Part shown: positions 9,176 to 57,006 of the stretch, piece by piece
Layout: the number at the start of each line of letters is the position of its first letter
Numbering within the stretch: position 1 is the stretch's first letter
Assembly: GCA_035644295.1 (NCBI GenBank)
Contig: DASQOU010000328.1
Span: 5,300 to 69,299, forward strand
DNA: 64,000 bases
Reading direction: 5' to 3'
From: Bradyrhizobium sp.
GTDB taxonomy: Bacteria > Pseudomonadota > Alphaproteobacteria > Rhizobiales > Xanthobacteraceae
Made by a program: the position numbers and the translations under genes
The notes under the pieces: generated by a model
What the model was told of the DNA's origin: nothing
Databases searched by the model: none
Seen by the model: only the letters and a program-made list of their open reading frames with translations

Positions 9176-11610
9176 CAGTTCACCACCGCCGGAACGGCAC
9201 CAAGATACGCATCGTCAAGCATCGCACCGCGCAACTCCGCGGCCTTGCCTTGCGCCACCACACGCCCACCCCCGAGCACATAGCCGCGGTCAGCAATGGC
9301 CAAGGCGTAGTCTGCCATCTGATCCACGATCAGCAAGGTCATGCCCTCATCCCGCAGCCTGGTAAATTGTTCGAACAGTTCAGCCACTACCGTCGGCGCC
9401 AGACCCAGCGAGGGTTCGTCCAAAAGCAGAACTTCGGGCCGCGCCAACAGACCACGGGCGACGGCAAGCATCTGTTGCTCGCCACCTGAGAGCAAGGCCG
9501 CCGCGGTGTGCAGGCGCGGGCGCAGCCGCGGAAAGCGCTCGAGCATCGTCTCGATCTCCGCCGGGTCGAGATCGCCGCGGCGGGTCGCGCCGAGACGAAG
9601 ATTTTCGGCGACGGTCAATTGCGGAAACACCTGCCGTCCCTCGGGCACAAGGATCAAGCCGGCGCGCGCGACGCGATGAGCCGGAAGAGATGCGAGATCA
9701 CGGTTGCCAAGCTGGATAGTGCCCTTCACCGGACGGATCAACCCGCTGAGGGCTTTCATAAGGGTTGATTTACCCGCACCGTTCGGACCGAACAGGGCGA
9801 TCACCTCCCCGCGGCCCACGTTCAGGCCGACTTGATCGAGCACGGCAAGGGCCCCATAGCCGGCGCTCAGCAAGCCTACTTCGAGCAAAGGCGCGCCGGC
9901 CGTCCGCGCCGCGGCCGATCCCGCTGGCATCGTGGTTCCGAGATAAGCCGCCCTGACGGCGGGATCGTTGCGTACGGCCGCCGGCGGTCCTGCCGCAATG
10001 CGACGTCCGGCGTCGAGCACGATGATCTCGTCCGAGATCGACATCACAAGCGCCATATCATGCTCGACCAGCACGACGGCGAGACCCGAGCGCGCCAGGC
10101 GCTGCAGCAGGCCGCCCAACTTGACCGTGTCGGTGTCACTGAGCCCGGCGGCGGGCTCATCCAAAAGAAGCACGGCGGGCGCAGTGCCAAGCGCGCGGGC
10201 GATCTCGACAAGCCGGCGATCCACATGCGGCAGCGTCGCGGCAAGTCTGGTTTCCGATCCGGAATAGCCGACGAGCGAGAGCAGCGCACGCGCGAGCGCA
10301 GCCGGGGCCTCGCCGCGCCAGCCGCCGCGCAACAGGCCAAGGCGGACATTGTCCAGTACGCTCAATCCGCCAAAGGGCTGCGCGGTTTGAAAGGTGCGGG
10401 CAAGGCCCGCGCGCGCGACTTCGTGGGCAGGTTGGCCTGTGATTTCGCGGCCGCCAACGCGCACGGTCCCGGAATCCGGACGCTGGAATCCGCTGACGAG
10501 ATTGAGCAGCGTCGTTTTGCCGGCGCCGTTGGGACCGATCACACTGGTGACGCGGCCGGGCGGCGCGGTCATGTCAACGCCCGCCACGGCAATGACGCCG
10601 CCGAACGCGACACGCACGCCTTCAGCGGTGAGGCTGCCGCGCGAGCCGGCGATATGGGCAAGCGCGAGATCGAGGTCAGGCTTCGTGTCTGGCGTGGCTT
10701 CCTCCGGCATCACCAGACGGGCGACCGCACCCGCAATCCCACCTGGGGCAGTCCAAAGCACGATCAGCAAACCTGCGCCGAAAACCAGAAGCCGGTATTC
10801 CGCGAGCCCCGCAAGCACCTCCGGCAGGAACACAACAACCGCCGACCCGACCAGCGGCCCCAGGGTGCGGCCCGCGCCGCCGACGACCGCCACCAGCAGA
10901 AACAGGATCGACTGCGAGAACGGAAACGAGCTGGGCGCAATGAAGCCCGTCAGCGCCGCCTGCAAACCACCGGCGAGACCGGCCGCCACGGCGGCCAACA
11001 CAAAGGCGGCGGTGCGTACCGGCAGCGCGCTTATCCCGACGCCGCGCGCCGCCGCAGGCGCCGATGCAATGGCCTGCATCGCCAGACCAAGCGGACTTCG
11101 CGCGAAATAATGGAACGAGACGAGAGCAACTACGCACAAGCCGCAGGCCAATAGCGCCGTGCCACCGGTGCCGAAGGGTGCTGGAATTCCGGTAAGGCCG
11201 CTGGAACCGCCGGTGAGATCGCGCCACTCGATCGAGACGGACTCGACGATGAAGCCGAAGGCGATGGTCACCATGGCGAGATAAGGACCCGTAACCCGAA
11301 GGGCGGGGATCGAGAGAGCGGCCGATATGGCGGCGACCAGCAGGACGGCGAGCGGCAACGCCTCCCAAAAATTCAAGCCGGCCTTGGTGGTGAGAATTCC
11401 GACCCCATAGGCGCCCAACGCCAGGAATCCGCCCTGGCCGAGAGATACTTCACCGGCGAGGCCGAGCAACACATTCAACCCAACGCCGACGAGTGCGGTG
11501 GTCGCGAGCATTCCAACAAGGTAAGCATAATAGCCGGGCGCAAGCAGGCAGATCGCGACTGTAGCGGCGCCGACCAGCACCGCGGCGACCACGGCAATGA
11601 TGGTCTTCAT
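9175..11610 (-). CDS. Fused branched-chain-type ABC permease plus two ATPase domains (LivM-LivG-LivF)
   Basis: TM N-terminal half; two GPNGAGK Walker A motifs; LDEPAAG and LSGGEQQ/LDEPSLG. Confidence 0.93.
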   Translation of the reverse strand: MKTIIAVVAAVLVGAATVAICLLAPGYYAYLVGMLATTALVGVGLNVLLGLAGEVSLGQGGFLALGAYGVGILTTKAGLNFWEALPLAVLLVAAISAALSIPALRVTGPYLAMVTIAFGFIVESVSIEWRDLTGGSSGLTGIPAPFGTGGTALLACGLCVVALVSFHYFARSPLGLAMQAIASAPAAARGVGISALPVRTAAFVLAAVAAGLAGGLQAALTGFIAPSSFPFSQSILFLLVAVVGGAGRTLGPLVGSAVVVFLPEVLAGLAEYRLLVFGAGLLIVLWTAPGGIAGAVARLVMPEEATPDTKPDLDLALAHIAGSRGSLTAEGVRVAFGGVIAVAGVDMTAPPGRVTSVIGPNGAGKTTLLNLVSGFQRPDSGTVRVGGREITGQPAHEVARAGLARTFQTAQPFGGLSVLDNVRLGLLRGGWRGEAPAALARALLSLVGYSGSETRLAATLPHVDRRLVEIARALGTAPAVLLLDEPAAGLSDTDTVKLGGLLQRLARSGLAVVLVEHDMALVMSISDEIIVLDAGRRIAAGPPAAVRNDPAVRAAYLGTTMPAGSAAARTAGAPLLEVGLLSAGYGALAVLDQVGLNVGRGEVIALFGPNGAGKSTLMKALSGLIRPVKGTIQLGNRDLASLPAHRVARAGLILVPEGRQVFPQLTVAENLRLGATRRGDLDPAEIETMLERFPRLRPRLHTAAALLSGGEQQMLAVARGLLARPEVLLLDEPSLGLAPTVVAELFEQFTRLRDEGMTLLIVDQMADYALAIADRGYVLGGGRVVAQGKAAELRGAMLDDAYLGAVPAVVN

Positions 11611-12476
11611 ACACGCACCTTGGTCCGGCCACCGAACAACCCGGATGGCGCGAGCACGAGTGCCGCGATGACGGCCGTGAAGGTGACGATCTGGGTGCTG
11701 CTTGAGCCAAGCCAGGTCGTGGCGCAGGCTTCCACCAGACCATAGGCCAGGCCGGCGATCACGACACCCCAGGGATTGGTGAGACCACCAAGGATCGCCA
11801 CGGCGAATGCCTTGATGCCGAACAAAGTCCCCATGTCATAGGCGACGTTATACACCGGCGCGATCAGTATGCCGCCGATCCCCGCCAGGAGCGCGGCGGC
11901 TGCATAGGTGAGCGCGATCAGCAAGGTCACGTCGATGCTCATGAGCCGCGCGGCATCCGGATTCTCGACCGCTGCCCGCAGCTTTAAGCCGAGTCCTGTC
12001 CGGTGCATTCCAAGATGAACCAGCAGCGCCAGCCCCAGTCCCACCAAGGGAACCAGAACCTGCAACGGAAAGATGCCGACATTGCCGATGACCCAGGGAT
12101 CGTCCGCAAGCGACGATGGAAGCGCGCGCGGCTCCTTGCCGAACAGCACCATCACCACATTGTCGAGCACGATTCCAAGCGCCACCGTCGCCATCAGCCA
12201 GGAATTCGTGCCGCGAGCGACGAACGGCCGGACCGCGATGCGTTCAACGATCAGGCCCCAGATCGCGCAAGCCAGCAGCGCCGCAGGGACCGCGGCCAGC
12301 ATCGGCCAGCGCAGCCCGACCGCGAGCGCGTGGCAGATCACCGCCCCCAGCATCACCGACGACCCCTGCGCGAAATTCACCGTGCCGGAGACGGCAAACG
12401 TCAACGTGAAGCCAAGCGCAATGAGGCCGTAGATGCTGCCGAGACTGAGCCCCGAGACAAGTGCGGTCGCGAGCAT
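11607..12476 (-). CDS. LivH-type ABC permease
   Basis: GSIYGLIALG..VNFAQG motif; hydrophobic throughout. Confidence 0.93.
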   Translation of the reverse strand: MLATALVSGLSLGSIYGLIALGFTLTFAVSGTVNFAQGSSVMLGAVICHALAVGLRWPMLAAVPAALLACAIWGLIVERIAVRPFVARGTNSWLMATVALGIVLDNVVMVLFGKEPRALPSSLADDPWVIGNVGIFPLQVLVPLVGLGLALLVHLGMHRTGLGLKLRAAVENPDAARLMSIDVTLLIALTYAAAALLAGIGGILIAPVYNVAYDMGTLFGIKAFAVAILGGLTNPWGVVIAGLAYGLVEACATTWLGSSSTQIVTFTAVIAALVLAPSGLFGGRTKVRV

Positions 12477-13779: not shown

Positions 13780-13796
13780 AAGCAAACGGTATGCCA
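13780..13796 (-). promoter_or_regulatory. sigma54 (-24/-12) promoter
   Basis: TGGCATACCGTTTGCTT, about 115 bp upstream of the SBP gene. Confidence 0.75.
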
Positions 13797-13961
13797 CAAC
13801 CGCAGAAATCACAACGGCACGCTGGATTGTGATTGAATATCTGCCCGTTGAGCGGCGTCGCATCCGGCAAGCCCTTTGGCGTCAGCTCTTGTCCGGCCGC
13901 CCGAAGCTCTTCGTAGCGCCGCCGATTGGCCTCGAAAATCTCCTGCCTGGTCCGTGGGTCG

Positions 13962-14582
13962 TCATGCCGCCGCACCGAGTTTGGAGATCGAGAAATGCGC
14001 CTCGACCGGTTTTCCCGCCTTGCCATTGATAGGCAGGATGTCCTGCGGACAGGCGGAGAATGCAATCACCAGATCCATCTCGGCGCGCAGGCGAACGTAG
14101 CCTCCGGGCACCGGCCGCGGCGGCGCGGCGAAGCCAAGCGTGCCATCGGGATCCCACGGAATATTCATGAACAAGTTAAGCGGGCTTGGTACCTCCGGCG
14201 GCACAAGCCCCAACTCTTTCATCCCGACAAAAAGATTATCCGTGCAATTGTCGTGATAGTCCTGCACCCCGAGAAAGGCGTAGCGGTAGCGATCGCAGGC
14301 TGCGATCAGGGTATCGTGAATTCCGCCAGACGTGTCTTCGGTCAAGGTCAGGATCGGCCGGCGTTTGTTCGTGCGTAGAACATCGCCGGGCCTGGGAACA
14401 AGGTGCAGGCTGTGCGCGCGCGTATGCTCATTCGACATAAACTCGCCCAGGTCGGCACGGTTGAATGCCCAGGTATCGACGACCTGCTCGCCATGGGTAT
14501 TGACGACGGTGATCACTTGGCCAGCCGCAACAAAGGCAGCCTTGCCACGCCTTGCAGGAATTTCGATGAGCGGATCACCCAT
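13962..14582 (-). CDS. DUF1989 urea carboxylase-associated family protein (CgdA/B-related)
   Basis: IPARRG, GEQVVDTWAFN, HDTLIAAC, HDNCTDNL, PLNLFMNIP, FSACPQD. Confidence 0.92.
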   Translation of the reverse strand: MGDPLIEIPARRGKAAFVAAGQVITVVNTHGEQVVDTWAFNRADLGEFMSNEHTRAHSLHLVPRPGDVLRTNKRRPILTLTEDTSGGIHDTLIAACDRYRYAFLGVQDYHDNCTDNLFVGMKELGLVPPEVPSPLNLFMNIPWDPDGTLGFAAPPRPVPGGYVRLRAEMDLVIAFSACPQDILPINGKAGKPVEAHFSISKLGAAA

Positions 14583-14591
14583 GCCAGCGCC

Positions 14592-14984
14592 TCAGGGCCT
14601 TATGGCAATCATGTCGATCTCAATGATACCGCCGCGGGCGAGCCCCGTGACACCGACGGTGGTTCGGGCAGGACGCTTGTCGGCGGCGAAATAGGTCGCG
14701 TAGATCTCGTTCATCTTCGCGTAGTCGGCGTTGAAGTCGGTCAGGAAAATGCGCACGCAAGCCACGTTGGCAAGCGAAAGCCCACAACCCCCGAGCACGC
14801 GGATCAGATTGTCCATCACCTTGTGCGTCTGGGCCTCGATGCCGGGCGGGATCGCTAAGGAATCGTCACCCGGATCGGTCGCAAGTTGCCCCGTCACGAA
14901 AACAAATCCTCCGGCCTCGACCGCATGGCTGTATGGCGCGACCGGCTTCGGCGCATCGGGCAAAAGGTGAAAGATCGGGTGCAT
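14592..14984 (-). CDS. RidA/YjgF family protein
   Basis: PVAPYSHAV, VFVTGQL, PARTTVGV, IEID. Confidence 0.93.
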   Translation of the reverse strand: MHPIFHLLPDAPKPVAPYSHAVEAGGFVFVTGQLATDPGDDSLAIPPGIEAQTHKVMDNLIRVLGGCGLSLANVACVRIFLTDFNADYAKMNEIYATYFAADKRPARTTVGVTGLARGGIIEIDMIAIRP

Positions 14985-15011
14985 GGCGGGATTCCTCCTG
15001 GCAGGTTATTG

Positions 15012-15797
15012 TCAGCGTCTGCTGCTGGCGACGTCACCGGCGTAGCGCTGAAGAAACTGGCGCGCGCGGTCGGTCTCGGGATTTGAGAAAAATTTATCCG
15101 GCGACCCGGTTTCGACGGCTCGCCCGCGATCAAGAAACAGCACCCGCGTTGCCGCATCCCGCGCGAAAGCCATTTCGTGAGTGACGATCACCATCGTCAT
15201 TCCTTCGCGAGCGAGATCCCGCATCACGACCAGCACCTCTCCGACAAGTTCCGGATCGAGCGCGCTGGTCGGCTCGTCGAACAGCAGAAGGTCCGGCCGC
15301 ATCGCCAATGCGCGTGCGATGCCGACACGCTGCTTCTGTCCGCCCGACAGTTTCGCCGGAAATGCGTCGCGCTTGTCGCTGAGTCCCACTTTCGAGAGCA
15401 GCGCCACCGCCTCATCGAGAACCTCGGCCTTCGGCCGCTTCTGCACCTGGACCGGCGCTTCCATGAGGTTTTGCAGCACCGTGAGGTGAGGCCACAGCGC
15501 AAAGTGCTGGAATACCATGCCAATGCGCGTTCTGATCTTCGACAGATCGCGATCGCCCATGACGATGCCGGCGTTGTTGATGCCGACTCGCTCCCCATTC
15601 AAATAGATTTGTCCTGCGTCCGGCCGCTCGAGCCAGTTGATGCAGCGTAGCAAGGTCGATTTGCCCGAGCCCGACGGCCCGAGCACGCAGATGGTCTCGC
15701 CCTTGTCGACGCGGAAGCTGACGTCGGAGAGGACTTCTACATTGCCAAACCGTTTCGAGACCCCGGCTACATCGAGAACCTTGTTGGAATCGGCCAC
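15012..15797 (-). CDS. Polar amino acid ABC transporter ATPase
   Basis: GPSGSGKS, LSGGQKQR, FDEPTSALDPE. Confidence 0.95.
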   Translation of the reverse strand: MADSNKVLDVAGVSKRFGNVEVLSDVSFRVDKGETICVLGPSGSGKSTLLRCINWLERPDAGQIYLNGERVGINNAGIVMGDRDLSKIRTRIGMVFQHFALWPHLTVLQNLMEAPVQVQKRPKAEVLDEAVALLSKVGLSDKRDAFPAKLSGGQKQRVGIARALAMRPDLLLFDEPTSALDPELVGEVLVVMRDLAREGMTMVIVTHEMAFARDAATRVLFLDRGRAVETGSPDKFFSNPETDRARQFLQRYAGDVASSRR

Positions 15798-15807
15798 CGG
15801 CGCCCTC

Positions 15808-16464
15808 CTATCGACGCGCTTCGGCGACGCGGCCGATCGAACTCACCCCAGCCTCGATGATGAGGCAGAGTCCCCAGTACAAAAACACCGCGGTGATGAA
15901 GGCCGCGAACGGTACGTAGTGCCGCGACTGGATCGAGCTCGCGGCATGCGTGAGTTCCGGCAGCGCGATGATGCTAAGGAAGGCGCTGTCCTTGATGATC
16001 TGGATCATCTGATTGCCGATCACGGGACCCGCCGACAACAGCAGCGGCGGAAGAATGATGCGGCGAAACAGCCGGATTTCAGAGAAGCCGAACGCGACCC
16101 CCGCCTCGATCGGCTCCCGCGGCTGCACCACCCATGCACCTCGCAGGATCTCAGCCATGTAAGCAGCATTGTAAATCGTCAGCGCCGCCAGCCCCGAGGT
16201 CCAGTTGTCCAGCCTGACGCCGAATGACGGAAAGCCATAATAGACGATATAGGCAAACAGCAGAAACGGCACGCATCGCATGCCGTCGACGAACAGGCGT
16301 GCCAGCCCGGACACAGCCGGCCGTTTCGACATCAGCGCCGGAGTGACCATAAAGCCCAACAGCAGCGCGGCGACGGCGGACAGCGTCGACAGGATCGCCG
16401 TATTGGCAAGCCCGCTCAGAAGCAGCGAATGTTCGCTCCAGACGATGCCGAAGTCGCGGATCAT
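15808..16464 (-). CDS. Polar amino acid ABC permease
   Basis: AYMAEILRG / EAG..FG EAA loop; KDSA motif. Confidence 0.92.
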   Translation of the reverse strand: MIRDFGIVWSEHSLLLSGLANTAILSTLSAVAALLLGFMVTPALMSKRPAVSGLARLFVDGMRCVPFLLFAYIVYYGFPSFGVRLDNWTSGLAALTIYNAAYMAEILRGAWVVQPREPIEAGVAFGFSEIRLFRRIILPPLLLSAGPVIGNQMIQIIKDSAFLSIIALPELTHAASSIQSRHYVPFAAFITAVFLYWGLCLIIEAGVSSIGRVAEARR

Positions 16465-17108
16465 GCCGCGGCCTCGGCTGCGAACTGACGGCGTTCGATC
16501 CAGCGCTGCAGTGAAACGAGCGCAAAGACGATCGGTACGTATAGCGCCACCGCCACCAGAAAGGGCGGCAGAGGTTCGTAGGTCTGCGCGCCAATTCTTA
16601 CCGCCGCGCGGGTGATATCGACGACCCCCACCACCGCAAGCACCGGCGTGACCTTGATGAGCAGCGACATTTCATTGACGAGGCCGGGAAGGCTTACCCG
16701 CACGATCTGCGGCAAAACGATCCTGCGAAAGCGCTGTTCGGCGCGCATGCCAACGGACTGCGCTGCCTCGTATTGATCCCTCGGAAAATTCATCAGCGCC
16801 GCCCGCCAAACCTCGCAGTTGAAGGCCGAGGTGTTCATGACCAGAGCAAGGATCGCCGCCGATATCGGATTGATCGGCACGCCGATATTCGGAAGAGCGA
16901 AGAACAGCAGCAATAGAAGGGTAACCAGGGGAGTTGCGCGCAAAATGCTGACGTAGAGCGTTACGATCCTCGCTGCGACCGGAACATCGGCCCAGCGCAG
17001 CAACGCGAGGCCGAGGCCGATCGGCAACCCGATCAGGATGCCGACGAATGACAGCGATACTGTCACGACGGCCCCCTGAAAGATGGCTGCGATGTCGCTG
17101 CCGTTCAT
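16461..17108 (-). CDS. Polar amino acid ABC permease
   Basis: RATPL, QYEAAQSVG EAA motif. Confidence 0.92.
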   Translation of the reverse strand: MNGSDIAAIFQGAVVTVSLSFVGILIGLPIGLGLALLRWADVPVAARIVTLYVSILRATPLVTLLLLLFFALPNIGVPINPISAAILALVMNTSAFNCEVWRAALMNFPRDQYEAAQSVGMRAEQRFRRIVLPQIVRVSLPGLVNEMSLLIKVTPVLAVVGVVDITRAAVRIGAQTYEPLPPFLVAVALYVPIVFALVSLQRWIERRQFAAEAAA

Positions 17109-17133
17109 GTCGGACGTTCTGCCAGGTCAGCCC

Positions 17134-17988
17134 TTAAAATTCCGGCTCAAACGCGACCGGCAGGTCGGGGAATGCCTGGCCAAACCACTTCTTCTGAAGC
17201 TCGGCGAACCTGCCGCTGGCTTTTTCCTTGGCGAGAAATTCGTTCAGGAAGGCGAGCAGTTCCTTGTTGTCCTTGGCGACGGCCCACGCCGGGAAGGACT
17301 TTCCTGAAACCGCCTGGCCGATCTCGAATATCGGCTTTTCAGCCACCAGCGTCTGCAGATTGATGATGGTGTTGACCACGTAATCTACCCGGCCCAGGGC
17401 CAGGTCCTGGTAGGCTTCAGGATAGGAGGTGTATTCGACCACCTTTCCGAGCTTGCCGCCGGTCTTCTCCAGCATCGTGCCAAGTTCGGGAAGACGCCCA
17501 AGCAGCGCGCTGCCGGCTTGAACGCCGACGGTCTTCCCATTCAGATCCTTGATCGAGGAAATGGATTTGTCGTCTTTCCGCTTCACATAGTAATGCGTCG
17601 CGTCAGCGATCGGGCTCGTAAAATCAAGCGATTTCTTGCGTTCCTTGGTGATGATCACGGCCGTAATGGCGACATCATACTTGCCGGTGCTGACGCCAGC
17701 CAGGATGCCGGTCCAGGGTAGGATTTCCTGCTTGATCTCGAATGGCGCGGACTTGCGCAGATCTTCAATCAGCTCGTTGTCGAAGCCGGTCGGCTTGCCA
17801 TCTTTCACGAACTCGAAGGGGCGGAAATCGTCCTCCGTCGCCGCGATGAGACCACGCTTCTTGATCTCCTCCATGCTCGCAGCTTTCGCATCGCCGATCA
17901 CCATCGGCATGGCGAACAGCGCGGCCATCGAGCCGAGCATCAGGCGGCGCGTCAAGGAATTGGGATAGGCGATTGAGCATGTTTTCAT
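17134..17988 (-). CDS. Polar amino acid (family 3) substrate-binding protein
   Basis: LTRR signal; PFEF..DGKPTGFD; ITKERKKSLDFT. Confidence 0.93.
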   Translation of the reverse strand: MKTCSIAYPNSLTRRLMLGSMAALFAMPMVIGDAKAASMEEIKKRGLIAATEDDFRPFEFVKDGKPTGFDNELIEDLRKSAPFEIKQEILPWTGILAGVSTGKYDVAITAVIITKERKKSLDFTSPIADATHYYVKRKDDKSISSIKDLNGKTVGVQAGSALLGRLPELGTMLEKTGGKLGKVVEYTSYPEAYQDLALGRVDYVVNTIINLQTLVAEKPIFEIGQAVSGKSFPAWAVAKDNKELLAFLNEFLAKEKASGRFAELQKKWFGQAFPDLPVAFEPEF

Positions 17989-18068
17989 GGCGAGTCTTTC
18001 CTCTGTTTGCGTGATGGCCAGTCGCAGTCTTCAAAACAATACGCGCGGGGTCGCGGTCGGTGATCCCC

Positions 18069-18902
18069 TCAGTCGAAGCTGAAACCGTGTGAACGCAGAT
18101 AAGGCGGAAACGCCGCGCCCTCCGCCTTGGCGGCCTGTCGCGCCTTGTCTTCCGACCAGCCGTAAAAGGTCGCCTCGCCAAATTCCGCGTTGGACCGTTG
18201 CTGCTCGCGCGGAATAGCGTGCAGGGAATCCCGCCGGCGGTCGTAATCATCGATGGCGCCAGCAAGCTCGCTGTCATCGTAGCGGTCGCGGTGGGTCGTG
18301 ACGCGGCGCGGCAGGCGCAGGCTGACGTAACCCTCCCCTTGCGGATAGCCGAGGCAAAGTCCTGCGACCGGAAAAACCAGATCGGGCAAACCGAGAATCG
18401 CGGCAACCTTGTCGATCTCGTTGCGAATGACGGAGATGGGACAGACGCCGAGCCCGACGGATTCAGCGCACAGGATCATGGTCTGCATCGCAAGCGCAGC
18501 ATCCACGCTGGCGTTGAAGAAACCCTCCAGCGTTCCGTTCTTGACCGGTTTTCCACGCAATTCGCCGATGCGCTGCAGTCGTCTGGCATCGCCAAGAAAT
18601 ACGAAAAATGCCGGCGATAGTCCGATCCATGGCATGCTTGGGAAGAGCTTGCCGATCTCAGCACGCTGCGCGGGGTCGCTGACCCGCAGGATGGATGCCT
18701 GCTGGAAATCCGACTTGGCCGAAGTGCTCAAGGCCGCGGCGACAAGCAGATCAAGCAAGCTATCGCTGGGGATGACATCGCTGTAGCGGCGAACGGTTTT
18801 TCGGGAGAGAACGCGATTGATGAACTCATTCTCGGCGACTCCTTCGCCAGATGGACCGCCGTCGCCGAAGCGGCGTTCGATCGCGTCCGCGCCGGCCGAC
18901 AT
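18069..18902 (-). CDS. Nitroreductase / NADPH-flavin oxidoreductase (NfsA-like)
   Basis: RKTVRRY FMN motif, AESVGLGVCPIS.IRN, GLCLGYP, RLP. Confidence 0.9.
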   Translation of the reverse strand: MSAGADAIERRFGDGGPSGEGVAENEFINRVLSRKTVRRYSDVIPSDSLLDLLVAAALSTSAKSDFQQASILRVSDPAQRAEIGKLFPSMPWIGLSPAFFVFLGDARRLQRIGELRGKPVKNGTLEGFFNASVDAALAMQTMILCAESVGLGVCPISVIRNEIDKVAAILGLPDLVFPVAGLCLGYPQGEGYVSLRLPRRVTTHRDRYDDSELAGAIDDYDRRRDSLHAIPREQQRSNAEFGEATFYGWSEDKARQAAKAEGAAFPPYLRSHGFSFD

Positions 18903-19028
18903 CAGTTCGAATCCCGATCGGCCACGCGGTGCAGGCGGGCAGCCGCTGGCCAGTCTTCGACAAACATGGCCGGTTCTGGAAAAGTTGAGACGTCCATCGC
19001 CAACTCCACTGAAAGGTTCACGAACCCT

Positions 19029-19192: not shown

Positions 19193-19208
19193 AGCAAGGG
19201 ACATGCCA
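19193..19208 (-). promoter_or_regulatory. sigma54 promoter driving the riboswitch-nitroreductase operon
   Basis: TGGCATGTCCCTTGCT; predicted +1 near 19182, just before the aptamer. Confidence 0.8.
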
Positions 19209-19468: not shown

Positions 19469-19954
19469 TCAAGGAGCCGGCGTCGTCGCCTTCTCGGCGG
19501 CGGAACTGGCAGCCACGAGGCGCTGCATCATCGCGATGAATCGCTTTTGCTCCGCTTTGCTCAGGTCCGCCACGGTGTCGCGGTGCGCGGCGCGCGCCGA
19601 CGCCTCCATCCGGCGCAGCAGGCTTGCGCCTGCTCTGGTCAGCCGGCAAATCTGCGCCCGGCGATCCCGGCGGTGAACGGTGCGCTCGATAAACTTGCGC
19701 GATTGCAGGCGCTTAAGCGCGCCGGTGGTCGTGGTGCGATCGAGGGCCACGTCAGCCGCAAGTGTGGTTTGATCGGCGGTTCCACGCCGGGCCAAAGCAG
19801 AAAGCAGACTATACTGCAGCGGGGTGACCTCGAAGGCTGCGCATTTCTTCTGGAAGAGCGCGACATGGATTTGATGCAGCCGCCGGATCAGAAATCCCGG
19901 CCTTTGCCCCAGCGGCCAGGAATTGTTGCTCTTGTGCACCGCGTTCTTGGCCAT
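19469..19954 (-). CDS. MarR family transcriptional regulator
   Basis: RPGFLIRRLHQI, TPLQY, DRTT..G..KRL, DRRA. Confidence 0.92.
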   Translation of the reverse strand: MAKNAVHKSNNSWPLGQRPGFLIRRLHQIHVALFQKKCAAFEVTPLQYSLLSALARRGTADQTTLAADVALDRTTTTGALKRLQSRKFIERTVHRRDRRAQICRLTRAGASLLRRMEASARAAHRDTVADLSKAEQKRFIAMMQRLVAASSAAEKATTPAP

Positions 19955-20084: not shown

Positions 20085-21362
20085 ATGTCCGTGAGCACCA
20101 CATTTGATCTGCTGCTGCGTGGGGGACGCGTTATCGATCCGGCCTCAGGCATCGATGGCTTGAAGGATGTCGCGATCCGCAATGGCAAAATTGCCGCCGT
20201 TCAATCCGATATTTTGCCGACAAGTGCGAGAGAGATTGTCGATGTGACGGACAAAATCGTACTGCCCGGACTGATCGATACCCATGCGCATGTTTATCAA
20301 TATGTGACCGGCCGCTTCGGCGTGAACGCCGATATGGTAGGTGTCCAATCCGGCGTCACGACGCTGGTCGATCAGGGCGGTCCGTCCTGCATGACGCTGC
20401 CGGGCTTCCGGCACTTCATCGCAGAGAAGGCCAAGTCGCGGACTTACGCCTTTCTCTCGGCCTATCTGGTGGGAGGCCTGGAAGGACACTACTATCCCAA
20501 TCTTTACAGCCCCGACGGCGTCGACATCGACGCCACCGTGAAGGCGGCGAAAGCCAACCGCGACATCGTTCGCGGCATCAAGGCCCATGCCGAGATCGGT
20601 GGTTTTGCGCGCTGGGGCATCCGCGTCATCCAGATGGCGGCCGAGATCGGGCGTCGCGCCGAGCTTCCGGTCTATGTGCATTTCGGACAACTGTGGGGTC
20701 TGCCAGAAAGCGGCACCAACGGTGAAGATGTCGATACGATTCTGGAGCGGGTAATCCCGGTGCTCCGCGCCGGCGATGTCCTGGCGCATCCGTTCACGCG
20801 CCATCCCGGCGGATTCGTTAATCGCGAGGGCGAAGTTCATCCCGTCATTCAGGCGGCGCTCGATAAGGGACTGAAGGTGGACGTCGGCCACGGCAGTCAC
20901 TTCTCCTACCGCCTTGCCCGCAAGGCGCTGGCCGCCGGCATCGTTCCGACGACGCTCGGAGCCGATATCCACGGCTACAACACCCATGTGCCGGCGCCAG
21001 CCGGGACCCCCGACCAGCATGCCGACGACGAGAACCATCCTTTCGCGAGCCAAGCCAAATTCAGCCTGGTGCAAGCGATGAGCTCGATGATGGCGCTGGG
21101 CCTGACGCTTGAGCAGGTGGTGCCCATGGTAACGTCGCACCCGGCTGAAATGCTCGGGCTTTCGGATGTCATTGGCGCGTTGCGGCCTGGCATGGATGCC
21201 GACGTCACGGTGCTGACGCAGATGCGCGGTCGCTACATTTTACGCGACAATGAGAAGACGGAAGTGGTTGCAGATAGTCTGTTGCAGCCCGCGTTCTGCT
21301 TGCGCGCAGGCGAGCGCCATGATGCTATTGCTCCGATCTTGCCGCGCGCGGTAGCCGCATAG
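20085..21362 (+). CDS. Amidohydrolase/deacetylase family (dihydroorotase-like)
   Basis: PGLIDTHAH, GVTTLVDQG, IKAH, DVGHG, GADIH. Confidence 0.9.
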   Translation: MSVSTTFDLLLRGGRVIDPASGIDGLKDVAIRNGKIAAVQSDILPTSAREIVDVTDKIVLPGLIDTHAHVYQYVTGRFGVNADMVGVQSGVTTLVDQGGPSCMTLPGFRHFIAEKAKSRTYAFLSAYLVGGLEGHYYPNLYSPDGVDIDATVKAAKANRDIVRGIKAHAEIGGFARWGIRVIQMAAEIGRRAELPVYVHFGQLWGLPESGTNGEDVDTILERVIPVLRAGDVLAHPFTRHPGGFVNREGEVHPVIQAALDKGLKVDVGHGSHFSYRLARKALAAGIVPTTLGADIHGYNTHVPAPAGTPDQHADDENHPFASQAKFSLVQAMSSMMALGLTLEQVVPMVTSHPAEMLGLSDVIGALRPGMDADVTVLTQMRGRYILRDNEKTEVVADSLLQPAFCLRAGERHDAIAPILPRAVAA

Positions 21363-21397
21363 CCGCCCATGGCGGGTGCGAGTGGAGACGGCAATTC

Positions 21398-23785
21398 ATG
21401 TCTCAGGTTGAAAGCCATCTCCCCCCGGACGGAGCCGCCGGCACCGCACAGGGGGTGGGCGCGCGTCTAAGGCGCAAGGAAGACGATCGCTTCATGCGCG
21501 GGCGCGGCCAATACGTGGCCGACATCCGGATCGCAGGCCTGCAGGATGTAGCCTTCGTTCGCAGCCCTTTGGCGCACGCCCGGATAAGGGACATCCATGT
21601 ACCGGAACGTTATCGCGATGTCGTCTTTACGGCCGCGGATTTGACGGGCATCAAACCGATCCGCGCCGTATCCGGCCTGCCCGGCTTCAAAATCTCGGAG
21701 CAACCTGTTCTTGCGACCGACAAAGTGCGCCACGTTGGAGAACTCGTCGCGATGTGCGTGGCGTCTACTCGGGCGGAGGCCGAGGATATCGCGGCCTCAG
21801 TGACGCTCGACCTCGAAGAGCTTCCGGCGGTCTACGATATGCTCGGAGCGCGCGACGCTGCAACGGCGCTGGTCCACGAGCACTGGGGCGACAACGTCTT
21901 CCTCGAAAGCGCGTTCGAGGTCGATATCACCCGTGCATTCGATGCGCCGATCAAGGTAATGCGCGAAATATCGACCGCGCGCCAATGCATGTCGCCATTG
22001 GAAGGGCGTGGTGTGGTCGCGACCTTCGACCATCGCCTCGACCAGCTCACGCTTTATGCCGGCGCGCAGATGCCGCACATTGTTCGCAATGGCCTGTCCG
22101 ATTGCCTTGGTATCGAGCAGGGCCGGATCCGAATCGTGTCGCCTGATATCGGCGGGGGATTTGGCCACAAGGGAATTCTGCTGCCCGAAGAGGTTTGCCT
22201 TGCCTGGTTGACGATGCGCAAAGGCTGCGCCGTCCGCTGGATCGAGGACCGCCGCGAGCATTTGACGGCGAGCGCCAATTGCCGCGAACACCACTACAAG
22301 ATCACGGTCTATGCCGATCGCGACGGCCGCCTGTGCGGGATCGACTGCGAAGCGACCGTCGATTCCGGGGCGTATTCATCTTATCCCTTTTCCGCCTGTC
22401 TCGAGGCGGCGCAAGTTGCAAGCATTCTGCCGGGCCCCTACCGAATGCCCGCCTATCGTTGCCGGACCTTCTCGGTCGCGACCAATAAATGTCCGATCCT
22501 GCCCTATCGCGGCGTTGCCCGCACCGGCGTCTGCTTTGCACTGGAGATCATGCTGGATGCCGTCGCAGCGGCGGCGGGGATCGAACCAGGCGAGGTGCGC
22601 TTACGCAACCTGGTGAGCCCGGACGAAATGCCGTTCGACAACATCACCAAGAAACATTTCGACAGCGGCGACTACCCGCAAGCCATGCGGCGCGCCCTTG
22701 CCGCAATCGATATCGCCTCTGTGAGGGCACGTCAGCGAACCAAAGAGGCCGATGGGCGGCTGATCGGCGTGGGTCTATCGATCTATTGCGAGCAGGCCGC
22801 ACACGGCACCTCGGTCTATGCCGGCTGGGGCATTCCGATGGTGCCCGGACACGAGCAGGCCAATGCGCGCATGACGCCCGACGGCGGGCTCGAAATCCGG
22901 GTGGGTGTGCATTCGCATGGTCAGGGCCTCGAGACCACGCTCGCGCAGATCGCCCATGAAATCCTCGGCATTGAGACCAGGAATGTGTGGGTCGTCCACG
23001 GCGATACTGCGCTCACGCCGTACTCGACGGGAACCTGGGGTTCGCGCTCGATGGTGATGGCCGGTGGCGCGGTTGCGACCGCCTGCACCGAGATCGGCGA
23101 ACGCGCCAAGCGAATTGGCGCCAAGCTGCTTCAGCTTGATCCGGCGATGGTGACGCTGCGGGACGGCCGGGTGTGCGGACCCAACAGCAGCATCGGGCTT
23201 TCCGAAATTGCGCATACCTGGTACCGCCGCCCGCAGGACTTGCCGCCCGATGTCGATCCCGGCGGGCTGGAATCGACCAGCGGTTACAAGCCGCGGCGCG
23301 ACAGCGGCACGTTCAGCTATGCAGCCCACGCGGTGACCGTTGCGGTCGACCCGGATTTGGGCGAGGTCGAGATCCTCGACTATGTCATCGTCGAGGATGG
23401 TGGCGTGCTGGTCAATCCGATGATCGTCGACGGCCAGATTTATGGCGGCCTTGCGCAGGGCATCGGCACCGCCCTCTACGAGGAAATGCCGTTCGACACC
23501 GCCGGCCAACCGCTCGCGACCACGCTAGCCGATTACTTGCTTCCGGGACCAGCCGAGGTTCCGGAGCCGCGCCTCGATCATATGGAAACGCCTTCGCCTT
23601 ATACGATGTTCGGCGTCAAGGGCATTGGCGAAGGTGGCGCGATCGCCCCGCCAGCCGCTATCGCCAACGCTGTGAACGACGCGCTGCGCCCGCTTGGGGC
23701 TGAGCTGTTGCACTCGCCGATTTCGCCGCGCCGAATTGTCGAGGCCATCCTGGCGGCGCGCGACGCGGAAAGACCGGCCGCATGA
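21398..23785 (+). CDS. Xanthine dehydrogenase-family molybdopterin subunit (CoxL-like, not CO dehydrogenase)
   Basis: RKEDDRFMRGRG, GGGFGHK, PYRGVAR loop, HGQGLET, GVKGIGEGG. Confidence 0.93.
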   Translation: MSQVESHLPPDGAAGTAQGVGARLRRKEDDRFMRGRGQYVADIRIAGLQDVAFVRSPLAHARIRDIHVPERYRDVVFTAADLTGIKPIRAVSGLPGFKISEQPVLATDKVRHVGELVAMCVASTRAEAEDIAASVTLDLEELPAVYDMLGARDAATALVHEHWGDNVFLESAFEVDITRAFDAPIKVMREISTARQCMSPLEGRGVVATFDHRLDQLTLYAGAQMPHIVRNGLSDCLGIEQGRIRIVSPDIGGGFGHKGILLPEEVCLAWLTMRKGCAVRWIEDRREHLTASANCREHHYKITVYADRDGRLCGIDCEATVDSGAYSSYPFSACLEAAQVASILPGPYRMPAYRCRTFSVATNKCPILPYRGVARTGVCFALEIMLDAVAAAAGIEPGEVRLRNLVSPDEMPFDNITKKHFDSGDYPQAMRRALAAIDIASVRARQRTKEADGRLIGVGLSIYCEQAAHGTSVYAGWGIPMVPGHEQANARMTPDGGLEIRVGVHSHGQGLETTLAQIAHEILGIETRNVWVVHGDTALTPYSTGTWGSRSMVMAGGAVATACTEIGERAKRIGAKLLQLDPAMVTLRDGRVCGPNSSIGLSEIAHTWYRRPQDLPPDVDPGGLESTSGYKPRRDSGTFSYAAHAVTVAVDPDLGEVEILDYVIVEDGGVLVNPMIVDGQIYGGLAQGIGTALYEEMPFDTAGQPLATTLADYLLPGPAEVPEPRLDHMETPSPYTMFGVKGIGEGGAIAPPAAIANAVNDALRPLGAELLHSPISPRRIVEAILAARDAERPAA

Positions 23786-24621
23786 AGGCGGCAGCGTTCG
23801 CCTACGAACGTCCCACCGATTTGAGCGCCGCGCTCGCCCTGGTGGCCAGGGCGGACGGTACCGCCAAAATCATTGCGGGCGGACAGTCGCTGGGGCCGAT
23901 GCTCAACCTGCGGCTGGTTGAACCGGACCTCGTCATCGACATATCCGGGCTTTCGGAACTGAAATTTGCCGAACGCCGGGGTAACGAGCTCGTCATTGGC
24001 GCCTGCGTCACGCATGGCGACATCGAGGATGGCCGAATACCCGATGTGACGCGCGGCGCCATGCAGCGGGTTGCCAGCGCCATCGCCTACCGGGCCGTCC
24101 GCAACCGTGGCACGATCGGAGGATCCCTCAGTCACGCAGATCCCGCCGCGGACTGGATATCCGCCCTTTCGGCGTTGGGCGCAAAGGTCAGCTTGCGTAG
24201 CGTTGCCGGAGCCCGCGACCTGCTCATCGAGGAGTTCATTACCGGCGCACTTGAATCCGCGCTGCACCCCGGCGAAATCCTCGAAGCGGTCCGCGTGCCT
24301 GTCATGACGCCGTCGGCGCGGTGGGGCTACGTCAAGGCCTGCCGCAAGAGTGGTGAGTTCGCCCACGCCATGGCGGCGGTCCTGATCGATCCGGAACAGG
24401 CGACCGCTCGCGCGGTCATCGGCGCCCTCGACGCCGCTCCAATCGTTCTCCGTGATGCGGCGGAACTATTCGGCGGGCGGATAACGGGGGACTTCAAGCA
24501 ACAATTCGATGCGCGGGTGGCCGACGCCATCCTGACCAAAGCAGGCGTGGCGAACGCTGCCGATCGGCACATGCATGTTACGGTGTTGCGCCGTGCGATC
24601 ACCGAGGCGGCGTCTGCATGA
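23782..24621 (+). CDS. FAD-binding subunit (CoxM-like)
   Basis: IAGGQSL.PMLNLRL, RNRGTIGGSLSHADPAAD. Confidence 0.93.
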   Translation: MKAAAFAYERPTDLSAALALVARADGTAKIIAGGQSLGPMLNLRLVEPDLVIDISGLSELKFAERRGNELVIGACVTHGDIEDGRIPDVTRGAMQRVASAIAYRAVRNRGTIGGSLSHADPAADWISALSALGAKVSLRSVAGARDLLIEEFITGALESALHPGEILEAVRVPVMTPSARWGYVKACRKSGEFAHAMAAVLIDPEQATARAVIGALDAAPIVLRDAAELFGGRITGDFKQQFDARVADAILTKAGVANAADRHMHVTVLRRAITEAASA

Positions 24622-25811
24622 CCACGATCGGACTCACCGTCAACGCACGTTCCGTCAAGGCTTCGGTGGAGCCCCGCACCCATTTGGCCGACTTCCTGCG
24701 GGACAATCTCGATCTGACGGGAACCCATCTTGGCTGCGAGCATGGTGTGTGCGGGGCCTGCACGCTATTGATCGACGACATGCCGGCGCGTTCCTGCATC
24801 ACCTATGCCGTCGCCTGCGACGGCGCACGCGTGACCACGATCGAAGGGCTCGATGACGATGAAATTGCCATCGAGCTTCGCGCGGCCTTTGCCCGCGAAC
24901 ATGCCCTGCAATGCGGCTACTGTACGCCGGGCATGCTGATATCGGCGCGTGACCTCGTGCTTCGCTTGGCGGAACCCGACGAGCGCAACGTCCGCGCCGG
25001 ACTGAGCGGAAATCTATGCCGCTGCACCGGATATGTCGGTATTGTGCGCGCGGTACGCGGGGTGATCGACCAAAGGCGCAAGCGCGGCGTGGCGCCGATC
25101 GCCGGTGGAGGTCGTCAGGGGCTCGGTCCCGCGGGGTCCGGCAACGCCACAAACGTTGCCACCGCCAACTTTGCGGGGCCAGTGACAAAGGCCAAAACAC
25201 CCGAAGAGGTCAGCGGCGCGAACGCCATCCCGGACTTTACCCCCGCAAAGCTTTTCAGCGACCATTTTATCGTGCCTTATCCGCCCAATCAGGTCTTCGA
25301 GATGCTGGGCAATGTCAGGCAGGTTGCGGCCTGCCTTCCCGGCGCATCGCTGACCGCCGAGCCGACACCCGAGCGCGTGGAGGGCACGATCCGCATCAAA
25401 CTCGGGCCGATTTCGGCCGACTTCCGCGGTGCAGCACGCATCGAGCGCGATCTTGAAAAATTATCCGGCCGGATCGTCGGAATGGGCCGTGACCAACGCA
25501 GCCGGTCTTCCACCCAGGGCGAAATCCGCTATCATCTCGTCGCGGTCGAACAGCGCGCGGCGACCCGGGTCGAGCTTTCGATCGGCTACAGCCTCAAGGG
25601 GATGCTGGCTCAGATCGCCCGTGACGGACTGGTGCGCGATCTTGCAGCCCGCCTGACGGCCGACTTTGCGCGTAACCTCGATCGGCATCTTTCGGGTCAT
25701 CGGCCGACTAGGGCTCAGGCGGGACAGGAAGACTTAGACGGTGTTTCGCTGCTGACCGGACTCTTGCGCCAGCGGGTGATGAAGGCCATTCGGCGACTGT
25801 TGGGGCGGTAA
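24618..25811 (+). CDS. 2Fe-2S subunit (CoxS-like) fused to a CoxG/SRPBCC domain
   Basis: GCEHGVCGACT, QCGYCTPG, NLCRC; C-terminal VAACLPGA..IKLGPI.A.F.G. Confidence 0.9.
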   Translation: MTTIGLTVNARSVKASVEPRTHLADFLRDNLDLTGTHLGCEHGVCGACTLLIDDMPARSCITYAVACDGARVTTIEGLDDDEIAIELRAAFAREHALQCGYCTPGMLISARDLVLRLAEPDERNVRAGLSGNLCRCTGYVGIVRAVRGVIDQRRKRGVAPIAGGGRQGLGPAGSGNATNVATANFAGPVTKAKTPEEVSGANAIPDFTPAKLFSDHFIVPYPPNQVFEMLGNVRQVAACLPGASLTAEPTPERVEGTIRIKLGPISADFRGAARIERDLEKLSGRIVGMGRDQRSRSSTQGEIRYHLVAVEQRAATRVELSIGYSLKGMLAQIARDGLVRDLAARLTADFARNLDRHLSGHRPTRAQAGQEDLDGVSLLTGLLRQRVMKAIRRLLGR

Positions 25812-47448: not shown

Positions 47449-47710
47449 TTTCGAATCTCCTTGTGCTGATAGCCCCGAACGGTGAACACGGTAGGTGAGG
47501 GATTCGCGATTTCGATTTGGTCGAATCGGGTGATGCTGTCGCCTTTGGTCCGGAATGCGATGCGGCCTGGCTGGGATAGGGTTTTTTCAAAGCCGGTAAA
47601 TACCCACGTCCCGTCGCGCGCGGCGGCAATCGTTGCCGACGGCCCGATGCGCGGCGCACCGATCAGGCGCGCAGGCTTCTCGCTGGAAATGGGTATGATT
47701 GCCGACAGGA
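47445..47710 (-). pseudogene. Chimeric remnant: ChrB-like N-terminus joined to the C-terminus of another protein
   Basis: (L)SAIIPISSEKPARLIGAP resembles a ChrB start; FEKTLSQPGRIAFRTKGDSITRFDQIEI resembles the G..G.WTKADS.T.FD end of a beta-sandwich protein. Confidence 0.5.
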
Positions 47711-47909
47711 CGCGTCCATCCAGGATTTCGGGACGCGATTCTTCGGCTGTCGCCTCATGGGGAGATCGCAATCCCCACATCGAATAAACTAACCGGCCGA
47801 GGTAGGCTGTCAAGCATAGGGCCGTCGCTATCGGGCGCCATTAGACAACAACGCCCCAATTGCCGTTCCAGAGCAGATCACACATGCGTTACTCGGGTCT
47901 GTTCCCTCG

Positions 47910-56523: not shown

Positions 56524-57006
56524 ATGACGCAGTCCACGATCCGCCTGACTGTCAACGGCAGGGTCCATGAGGTCGGCGCCGCCCCGGATACCGCGCTGCT
56601 TTACGTGTTGCGCAACGATCTCGAATTGAACGGACCGAAATACGGCTGCGGGCTTGGCGAATGCGGCACCTGTGCGGTGTTGATCGACGGCCTCGCCGCC
56701 CGTTCCTGCGTGATCCCGATCAGCGGCTGCGTCAATCGCGAAATTCTCACGCTCGAGGGCCTCGGCTCGCGCGATGATCCCGATCCCGTGCAGGAGGCCT
56801 TCATCGGGGAACAGGCCGCGCAATGCGGCTACTGCCTCAACGGCATGATCATGACGACGAAAGCCTTGTTGATGCGCAACCCAAAACCCTCCGAGGCTGA
56901 AGCCCTTGAGGCGCTGCGCTACAATCTTTGTAGATGTGGGGCACATATCGAGATCCTCCGCGCCGTGATGCGCGCGGCGGGCCACGCCGCCGAGGCTCGT
57001 GACTGA
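56524..57006 (+). CDS. nicA: Nicotinate dehydrogenase 2Fe-2S subunit
   Basis: GPKYGCGLGECGTC, QCGYCLNG, NLCRCG. Confidence 0.88.
   Translation: MTQSTIRLTVNGRVHEVGAAPDTALLYVLRNDLELNGPKYGCGLGECGTCAVLIDGLAARSCVIPISGCVNREILTLEGLGSRDDPDPVQEAFIGEQAAQCGYCLNGMIMTTKALLMRNPKPSEAEALEALRYNLCRCGAHIEILRAVMRAAGHAAEARD

Follow-up and report, generated by a model that had tools for sequence, protein, structure and literature searches.

A stretch of 64,000 nucleotides (nt) from contig DASQOU010000328.1 of the Bradyrhizobium sp. assembly GCA_035644295.1, hereafter the window, carries seven co-oriented, tightly spaced minus-strand open reading frames (ORFs) across positions 13962–18902. Assignments from Pfam and NCBIfam identify these, in order of transcription, as a nitroreductase-family protein, the periplasmic binding protein, two permeases and ATPase of an ATP-binding cassette (ABC) importer, a RidA-family imine/enamine deaminase, and a protein of the DUF1989 family, here called X. 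An earlier note on this DNA had named the same genes and read them as a riboswitch-headed unit for the breakdown of a guanidino compound; the ORF list and the family searches agree with it on gene identity, coordinates, co-orientation and transcription order. Gaps between the operon genes measure −4 to 80 nt, and terminator-like sites, which were no more frequent than in shuffled sequence, do not occur within them. The assembly itself is a metagenome-assembled genome (MAG) of 400 contigs and 72.8 % completeness.

Among species-representative genomes, a scan found 80 loci with a gene for a DUF1989 protein 70–94 % identical to X; in 49 of them the same importer and enzyme genes follow one another in the order seen in the window. 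The hosts are mostly Bradyrhizobium, joined by Candidatus Raskinella and unclassified Alphaproteobacteria, and belong to several families. The conservation of gene neighborhood, proposed in the earlier note as a check, thus extends to 49 species-level genomes, a recurrence that cannot be put down to chance. Several loci have lost individual genes. Among loci with sufficient upstream flank, a single one lacks the nitroreductase gene; three loci lack RidA. In the close relative L067 (6395–6596) the nitroreductase gene is gone and the riboswitch lies 77 nt upstream of the binding-protein gene; RidA is absent from L023, L024 and L034, where the rest of the operon persists. Since the operon is otherwise kept in these loci, neither enzyme looks obligatory. 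An ATPase–RidA fusion was dropped as a functional (Rosetta-stone) clue because it occurs in the single locus L029 and is absent from its sister strains.

These comparisons bear on whether a pathway exists at all: a generic amino-acid importer and stress enzymes (nitroreductase, RidA) might have come to stand behind a riboswitch by chance, with the DUF1989 gene as a passenger. Each family is indeed common and broadly distributed, and nitroreductase and RidA have each been lost in some lineages. However, the shared order and gap range in 49 species-level genomes of several families, the lack of internal intergenic terminator-like sites beyond chance, the recurrent pairing of X with ABC genes in distant taxa, and the atypical binding site of the binding protein make such an accidental assembly very improbable.

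Almost all syntenic loci carry two further DUF1989 genes directly downstream of the X gene. Their products pass the equivalog cut-offs of the UAAP1 and UAAP2 models (TIGR03425/TIGR03424) at 250.7 and 303.3 bits, which identifies them as CgdA and CgdB, and maximum-likelihood phylogeny puts them within the CgdA and CgdB clades formed by carboxylase-linked pairs from other genomes of the family. Comparison by blastn with the four closest relatives (L009, L011, L067 and L010) places a 1388-nt gap in the window, with both sides aligning; window position 13845 corresponds to L009 10751 and window position 13833 to L009 12140, so that the missing part is L009 10752–12139. Because the relatives possess X together with CgdA/CgdB, whereas the window has a clean gap and a cgdA stub, the lone DUF1989 gene is, on the alignment evidence, the result of a lineage-specific deletion and a derived state rather than the architecture of the system. 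The single DUF1989 copy reported earlier therefore stands for the window and for the whole assembly, in which X is the only such protein found, but not as the design of the system, in which X accompanies a CgdA/CgdB pair. Assembly collapse between DUF1989 paralogs is an unlikely cause of the gap, given protein identities of 25–32 %, a junction in unique sequence and microhomology of at most 4 nt. The pair is also missing from L033 and L051, and in L021 a 401-amino-acid ORF of unrecognized kind (10844–12049) replaces cgdA while cgdB is kept, an independent disruption of the pair.

The carboxylase that accompanies CgdA/CgdB elsewhere appears to be missing from these genomes. Each of the 39 of 201 genomes of the family with a carboxylase has adjacent DUF1989 genes. 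The earlier note saw no carboxylase in the window, and the wider search extends this: the urea/guanidine carboxylase model (TIGR02712) drew only biotin-carboxylase-domain matches in the MAG, which is 72.8 % complete, and in four relatives that carry the operon, two of them with complete chromosomes, and no full-length enzyme in any of the five complete same-genus genomes. A long ORF in the window (57006–60566, 1186 amino acids) encodes a molybdenum-hydroxylase/cytochrome c fusion, not a carboxylase. Beyond the three operon genes, the relatives' genomes contain few or no further DUF1989 genes. Relocation of the carboxylase to another riboswitch locus was considered and rejected: contig C198, which bears such a locus, ends after the importer, and the homologous locus in relative G001 has importer genes only, with no carboxylase found anywhere in that genome. 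Allophanate hydrolase (TIGR02713) is encoded away from the operon in all four relatives; its best match in the incomplete MAG scores 217.8 bits against a cut-off of 511 and contains an internal TGA.

Turning to the control region, a sigma-54-type promoter motif precedes the operon (Table 1). The window contains two matches to the motif where 0.10 would be expected, and nearly all loci with the operon, among them riboswitch-less ones (e.g., L029, B. oligotrophicum S58), show it at the equivalent position. The motif also stands ahead of another Guanidine-I riboswitch in the same genome (L002) and of one in relative G001 (L093). Behind the promoter motif lies a Guanidine-I aptamer that matches the model over its full length (positions 1–107), with the first gene starting 171 nt downstream. 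Together with the gene order conserved in 49 loci, this aptamer bears out the notion of a single riboswitch-headed unit, and a link to guanidine metabolism is supported. Its helices have 96.4 % of cells paired and 13 pairs with compensatory changes, and none of 500 shuffles did as well. Orthologs in relatives score about 80 bits. The window copy has three private substitutions, absent from all 28 other aligned sequences. In the subtype-1 binding pocket the G67-equivalent G is kept (ACGG), and the A38-equivalent is G in the window copy only, being A in 28 of 28 others; in D. dadantii, A38G lowers guanidine affinity about 10-fold (PMC5340920). Another private substitution falls at the tolerant C69–G83 position.

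Downstream of the aptamer, folding predicts that the 3′ arm of an expression-platform hairpin could pair alternatively with the Shine-Dalgarno sequence and start codon of a 31-codon leader ORF, whose stop overlaps the nitroreductase start. This alternative pairing and the stop–start overlap suggest translational control through the leader ORF. A leader ORF with the same TGATG overlap is present in the riboswitch-less L029 (5563–5653), conserved in position and not in sequence. The riboswitch is present in 25 of the 49 operon-bearing loci; culturable relatives with both the riboswitch and the complete operon include Bradyrhizobium sp. dw_78 and B. diazoefficiens SZCCT0423. A set of seven riboswitch-less loci searched against Rfam gave no guanidine riboswitch or other class at threshold.

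Two more riboswitch loci and one sub-threshold match were observed in the same genome. A strong Guanidine-I riboswitch behind a sigma-54 motif (G000:C198:7597–7727; L002 1473–1603) heads an NMT1-type ABC importer; a second strong one (G000:C258:52947–53057) heads an OprB-type porin followed by resistance-nodulation-division efflux genes; and a ykkC-like match (G000:C352:17871–17980; 52.8 bits, below the Guanidine-I cut-off of 63), outside the window, precedes an EamA transporter gene, an association that typifies ykkC subtype 2d, still an orphan (PMC7266159).

Table 1. Features of the operon, its control region and the deletion (window coordinates)
Feature	Position	Strand	Basis or remark
Sigma-54-type promoter motif TGGCAT-N5-TTGCT	19193–19208	-	Immediately upstream of riboswitch
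Guanidine-I aptamer (RF00442, ykkC subtype 1)	19179–19073	-	67.8 bits, cut-off 63, E 6.8e-10
Expression-platform hairpin (GGAATTGGCAT ... ATGCCAATTCC)	19061–19029	-	Fold −45.6 kcal/mol, z −2.64
Leader ORF, 31 codons	18997–18902	-	GGAG Shine-Dalgarno 19004–19007; stop overlaps nitroreductase start (TGATG)
Nitroreductase-family protein, NfsA-like, 277 amino acids	18902–18069	-	PF00881, 57.7 bits
Periplasmic binding protein, SBP_bac_3	17988–17134	-	Pfam
ABC permease 1, BPD_transp_1, HEQRo type with three transmembrane segments	17108–16461	-	Pfam, NCBIfam
ABC permease 2, BPD_transp_1	16464–15808	-	Pfam, NCBIfam
ABC ATPase, polar amino acid type	15797–15012	-	Pfam, NCBIfam
RidA-family imine/enamine deaminase	14984–14592	-	TIGR00004, 109.6 bits, cut-off 106.25
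DUF1989 protein X, 206 amino acids	14582–13962	-	PF09347, 169.1 bits, cut-off 27
5′ remnant of cgdA, codons about 6–41	13844–13951	-	Out of frame with ancestral ATG 13965–13963
Deletion junction, most of cgdA and all of cgdB removed	13833–13845	-	Junction alignment, ≤4 nt microhomology
Second sigma-54 motif, start of Liv-type unit	13781–13796	-	Motif scan; outside conserved operon

The importer has the make-up of the polar amino acid transport family: an SBP_bac_3 binding protein, two permeases of the type with three transmembrane segments, and an ATPase. In the LAO, HisJ and GlnBP structures, an Arg binds the alpha-carboxylate of the ligand and an Asp its alpha-ammonium group. In the binding protein encoded here the Arg is kept (TKER) and the Asp position is occupied by Thr (VVNT); this combination holds in 50 of 50 orthologs, and the four best PDB matches have Asp. 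The replacement makes an ordinary alpha-amino acid an unlikely ligand, and the suspicion that this protein is not of the ordinary amino-acid type is upheld by sequence comparison across all 50 orthologs. An omega-guanidino acid, being a carboxylate with no free alpha-amino group, is one kind of ligand that would fit the predicted pocket.

NMT1-type importers are the kind normally tied to guanidine uptake. An ABC importer of this type, under a Guanidine-I riboswitch of its own, is encoded elsewhere in the genome, so that the importer of the operon presumably handles something else. This bears on the idea of a third, carboxylase-independent pathway for guanidine itself, in which guanidine would enter through the importer and be deiminated by X (joined by CgdAB in relatives), either directly or after a flavin-dependent step. 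A guanidine-specific riboswitch class does head the operon, no carboxylase was found in the operon-bearing genomes searched, and these are the relatives' only DUF1989 genes. Even so, with a dedicated riboswitch-controlled NMT1-type importer already present, the carboxylate-binding Arg kept in the binding protein, and half of the operons lacking the riboswitch, we regard a direct route as quite improbable.

Protein X falls below both DUF1989 equivalog cut-offs, at 105 bits against UAAP2 (cut-off 284.7) and 62.8 bits against UAAP1 (cut-off 205.95), and NCBIfam has no model specific for it. The phylogeny against CgdA and CgdB called for in the earlier note places X in its own clade, with support of 96/83, outside both. 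The DUF1989 domain of the trimethylamine N-oxide demethylase Tdm has three zinc-binding Cys residues, with a His and an Asp proposed for a second metal (PMC12560246). By alignment, X residues C96, C113 and C178, which form the three-Cys zinc site, correspond to Tdm C263, C279 and C343 (PMC12560246), and H110 and D181 complete the set. All five Tdm metal-site residues are kept in X; CgdA lacks most of them, and the Asp is missing from CgdB. Since its Tdm-type metal site is complete, X looks like a self-sufficient metalloenzyme. The closest solved structures are PDB 3ORU/3SIY (204.7 bits, E 1e-59).

Away from this operon X stands alone, and it turns up repeatedly next to ABC importers of the polar-amino-acid type, as in Azospirillum and Aurantimonas loci. 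Agmatinase-family ureohydrolases, which are neighbors in 12 loci, and a hydantoinase A/B fusion lie within a few kilobases of X. Among the Acetobacteraceae-type loci L059–L082 (e.g., L059 9339–17552), nine (e.g., L059, L064 and L080) place the X gene beside a conserved divergent pair encoding a 548-amino-acid protein with no family match and a hydantoinase A/B (caprolactamase/oxoprolinase-like) fusion of 1270–1290 amino acids, with an agmatinase-family gene nearby. A single common partner of X outside Bradyrhizobium was rejected, as the neighbors are varied and linked only loosely to guanidino/ureido metabolism. The lone DUF1989 gene of the same-genus genome G202 was likewise set aside as a related case, its context being unrelated and containing no homolog of any operon gene.

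The nitroreductase scores 121.8 bits against the NfsA model (NF008033), below the equivalog cut-off of 223, and its closest solved structures are NADPH flavin/nitro reductases of the NfrA/NfsA/Frp type. Enzymes of this family act on N–O bonds. Possibly, then, the operon serves a reductive N–O route: canavanine would be imported, or hydroxyguanidine would arise from canavanine gamma-lyase, the flavoenzyme would cleave or reduce the N–O bond to give guanidine and thereby induce the riboswitch, and RidA and the DUF1989 enzymes would process the products. Bradyrhizobium lives alongside canavanine-producing legumes, the importer belongs to the arginine/polar amino acid type, and the splitting of canavanine by bacteria into homoserine and guanidine or hydroxyguanidine has been reported, with the genes partly known (PMC9533460). 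On the other side, canavanine as an arginine analog should need the alpha-ammonium Asp that the binding protein lacks, L067 keeps the operon without a nitroreductase, and the operon includes no pyridoxal-phosphate lyase. We grant this route only a small chance.

Flanking genes offer a further possibility. Upstream of the operon lie a MarR gene (19469–19954, minus strand) and, divergent from it, a PRK09237-type amidohydrolase with a three-subunit molybdenum hydroxylase (20085–25811, plus strand), and this arrangement accompanies the operon in most Bradyrhizobium loci. These MarR-linked genes and the operon could form a larger N-heterocycle catabolic regulon in which the amidohydrolase and molybdenum hydroxylase oxidize and open a guanidine-containing ring to yield an acyl- or carboxy-guanidine for deimination by CgdAB and X. 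Such a scheme would account for CgdAB without a carboxylase, and homologs (59–67 % identity) of the flanking enzymes lie next to X or CgdAB in the rearranged loci L050, L053, L055 and L070. However, linkage beyond inherited synteny depends on those four loci, each unit has its own promoter and the two run in opposite directions, a carboxylate-ligand importer is a poor fit to a ring substrate, and the amidohydrolase matches only a generic family. A shared regulon is, in our estimate, distinctly unlikely.

Downstream of the deletion, a minus-strand unit (13664–7943) comprises a Liv-type ABC importer (13664–9175), made up of a binding protein, LivH and a fused LivM–LivG–LivF protein of 811 amino acids, and an amidohydrolase (9175–7943); it adjoins the operon in only nine loci, those of the closest relatives. 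A chrB-a cis-regulatory RNA motif was also detected elsewhere in the window (47706–47781, minus strand; 78.1 bits, cut-off 43.9).

Taken together, we propose that this is a nitrogen-scavenging guanidine-metabolism operon under dual control, of which the window holds a truncated derivative, and we put the probability of this reading at roughly 55 %. Nitrogen limitation would presumably activate transcription from the sigma-54 promoter, and the Guanidine-I riboswitch would permit expression only when free guanidine is present, probably by freeing the Shine-Dalgarno sequence of the leader ORF, which is translationally coupled to the first gene. The ABC importer may then take up a carboxylate-bearing compound other than a standard alpha-amino acid, most likely an omega-guanidino acid or another substituted guanidine, with guanidine itself entering through the separate riboswitch-controlled NMT1-type importer. 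Nitrogen would be released by the DUF1989 metalloenzymes, with X as a self-contained zinc-site enzyme and, in relatives, the CgdA/CgdB carboxyguanidine-deiminase pair following it in gene order. The NfsA-like flavoenzyme and RidA are candidate accessory activities, providing a redox step and the removal of a reactive imine. The sequence of steps offered in the earlier note (flavin-dependent redox activation, deimination by DUF1989, imine hydrolysis by RidA) is speculation. The cgdAB deletion and the three private aptamer substitutions suggest that the window copy is a degraded, possibly decaying example of this kind of guanidine-riboswitch nitrogen operon, in which only the X-dependent part could still run.

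Several observations weigh against this proposal. The deletion is seen in a MAG assembly of 400 contigs, and each of the seven ORFs that remain is of full length, which leaves decay unproven. Since about half of the operon loci lack the riboswitch, guanidine control is a feature of certain lineages and does not define the operon. The conservation of nitroreductase and RidA in most loci means that the label "accessory" may understate their role. Neighbors of X outside the operon are heterogeneous, with luciferase-like monooxygenases commonest (7 of 64 outside Bradyrhizobium), followed by ABC proteins, amidohydrolases and arginase-family proteins. We know of no source of carboxyguanidine for CgdAB in the absence of a carboxylase, and we found no experiment or paper linking any of these proteins to a substrate.

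A bolder interpretation is that the conserved operon encodes a third way of releasing nitrogen from guanidine, or from N–O- or N-substituted guanidines, that needs neither carboxylase nor ureohydrolase. Catalysis would hinge on the clade-X zinc enzyme, a reduction or oxidation (e.g., the reductive splitting of canavanine or hydroxyguanidine to guanidine) would fall to the NfsA-like flavoenzyme, and the X-only form of the window, L033 and L051 would be a functional minimal version, not a wreck. We consider it unlikely, with an appreciable minority chance of being correct.

Guanidine is now recognized as a widespread natural nitrogen compound, and to our knowledge only two routes for its degradation are known, one through the carboxylase with CgdAB and the other through a nickel-dependent hydrolase. 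The nitrogen-scavenging operon proposed here is predicted to sense guanidine, appears to be driven by nitrogen starvation and is conserved in an agriculturally important genus, with neither known route. Assigning its substrate would give a function to a large DUF1989 clade and could show which guanidino compounds are scavenged by bacteria of soil and by those associated with legumes. Variants that have arisen in nature provide ready-made genetic contrasts for cgdAB (window, L033 and L051), cgdA (L021), nitroreductase (L067) and RidA (three lineages). We found no paper linking a guanidine riboswitch with nitroreductase, DUF1989 or Bradyrhizobium; a review of guanidine biology (PMC12623156) mentions none of these genes, and the literature searched contains no description of this operon or of clade X. 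New here are the cgdAB deletion and the gene-loss variants, clade X and its metal site, the binding-site anomaly of the importer, the pairing of a sigma-54 motif with a riboswitch, and the genus-level absence of the carboxylase.

Among known systems, the Rut pyrimidine pathway offers an analogy only: it likewise combines a RidA-family protein (RutC) with a nitroreductase-family protein (RutE), releases nitrogen and is controlled by sigma-54. However, the RidA encoded here scores 71.7 bits against a RutC cut-off of 169, the nitroreductase is NfsA-like rather than RutE-like, and RutA, RutB, RutD and RutF have no counterparts. Tdm, a protein with DUF1989 and GcvT domains, has all five proposed metal-site residues in common with X, whereas X lacks both the GcvT domain and the N-terminal DUF1989-like domain, scores 85.9 bits in NCBIfam against a cut-off of 1100, and belongs to a separate clade. 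PDB 3ORU/3SIY share the three-Cys zinc site of X (PMC12560246), and the function of both structures is likewise unassigned.

Another comparable system is the expanded guanidine operon of Vreelandella boliviensis, in which a guanidine-specific class I riboswitch heads genes for the MgdH dioxygenase and MgdL lyase acting on methylguanidine (PMC12508155). The likeness lies in the riboswitch class and in extra enzymes directed at a substituted guanidine, with guanidine, their product, serving as the signal (PMC12508155); in the present operon, by contrast, the added enzymes come from other families and there is no carboxylase core. The classical guanidine carboxylase operon comprises a Guanidine-I riboswitch, an NMT1/NitT-TauT ABC importer, guanidine/urea carboxylase, CgdA/CgdB and allophanate hydrolase. 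Unlike that operon, the present one has an importer of the polar-amino-acid type and an extra nitroreductase, RidA and third DUF1989 clade; neither this genome nor its relatives yielded a carboxylase, cgdAB is deleted in the window, and allophanate hydrolase is encoded elsewhere in the relatives and was not found above the cut-off in the incomplete MAG. The two nevertheless have the riboswitch class and the purpose of nitrogen assimilation in common, and the CgdA/CgdB pair of the classical operon is orthologous to the pair that the relatives carry in this one.

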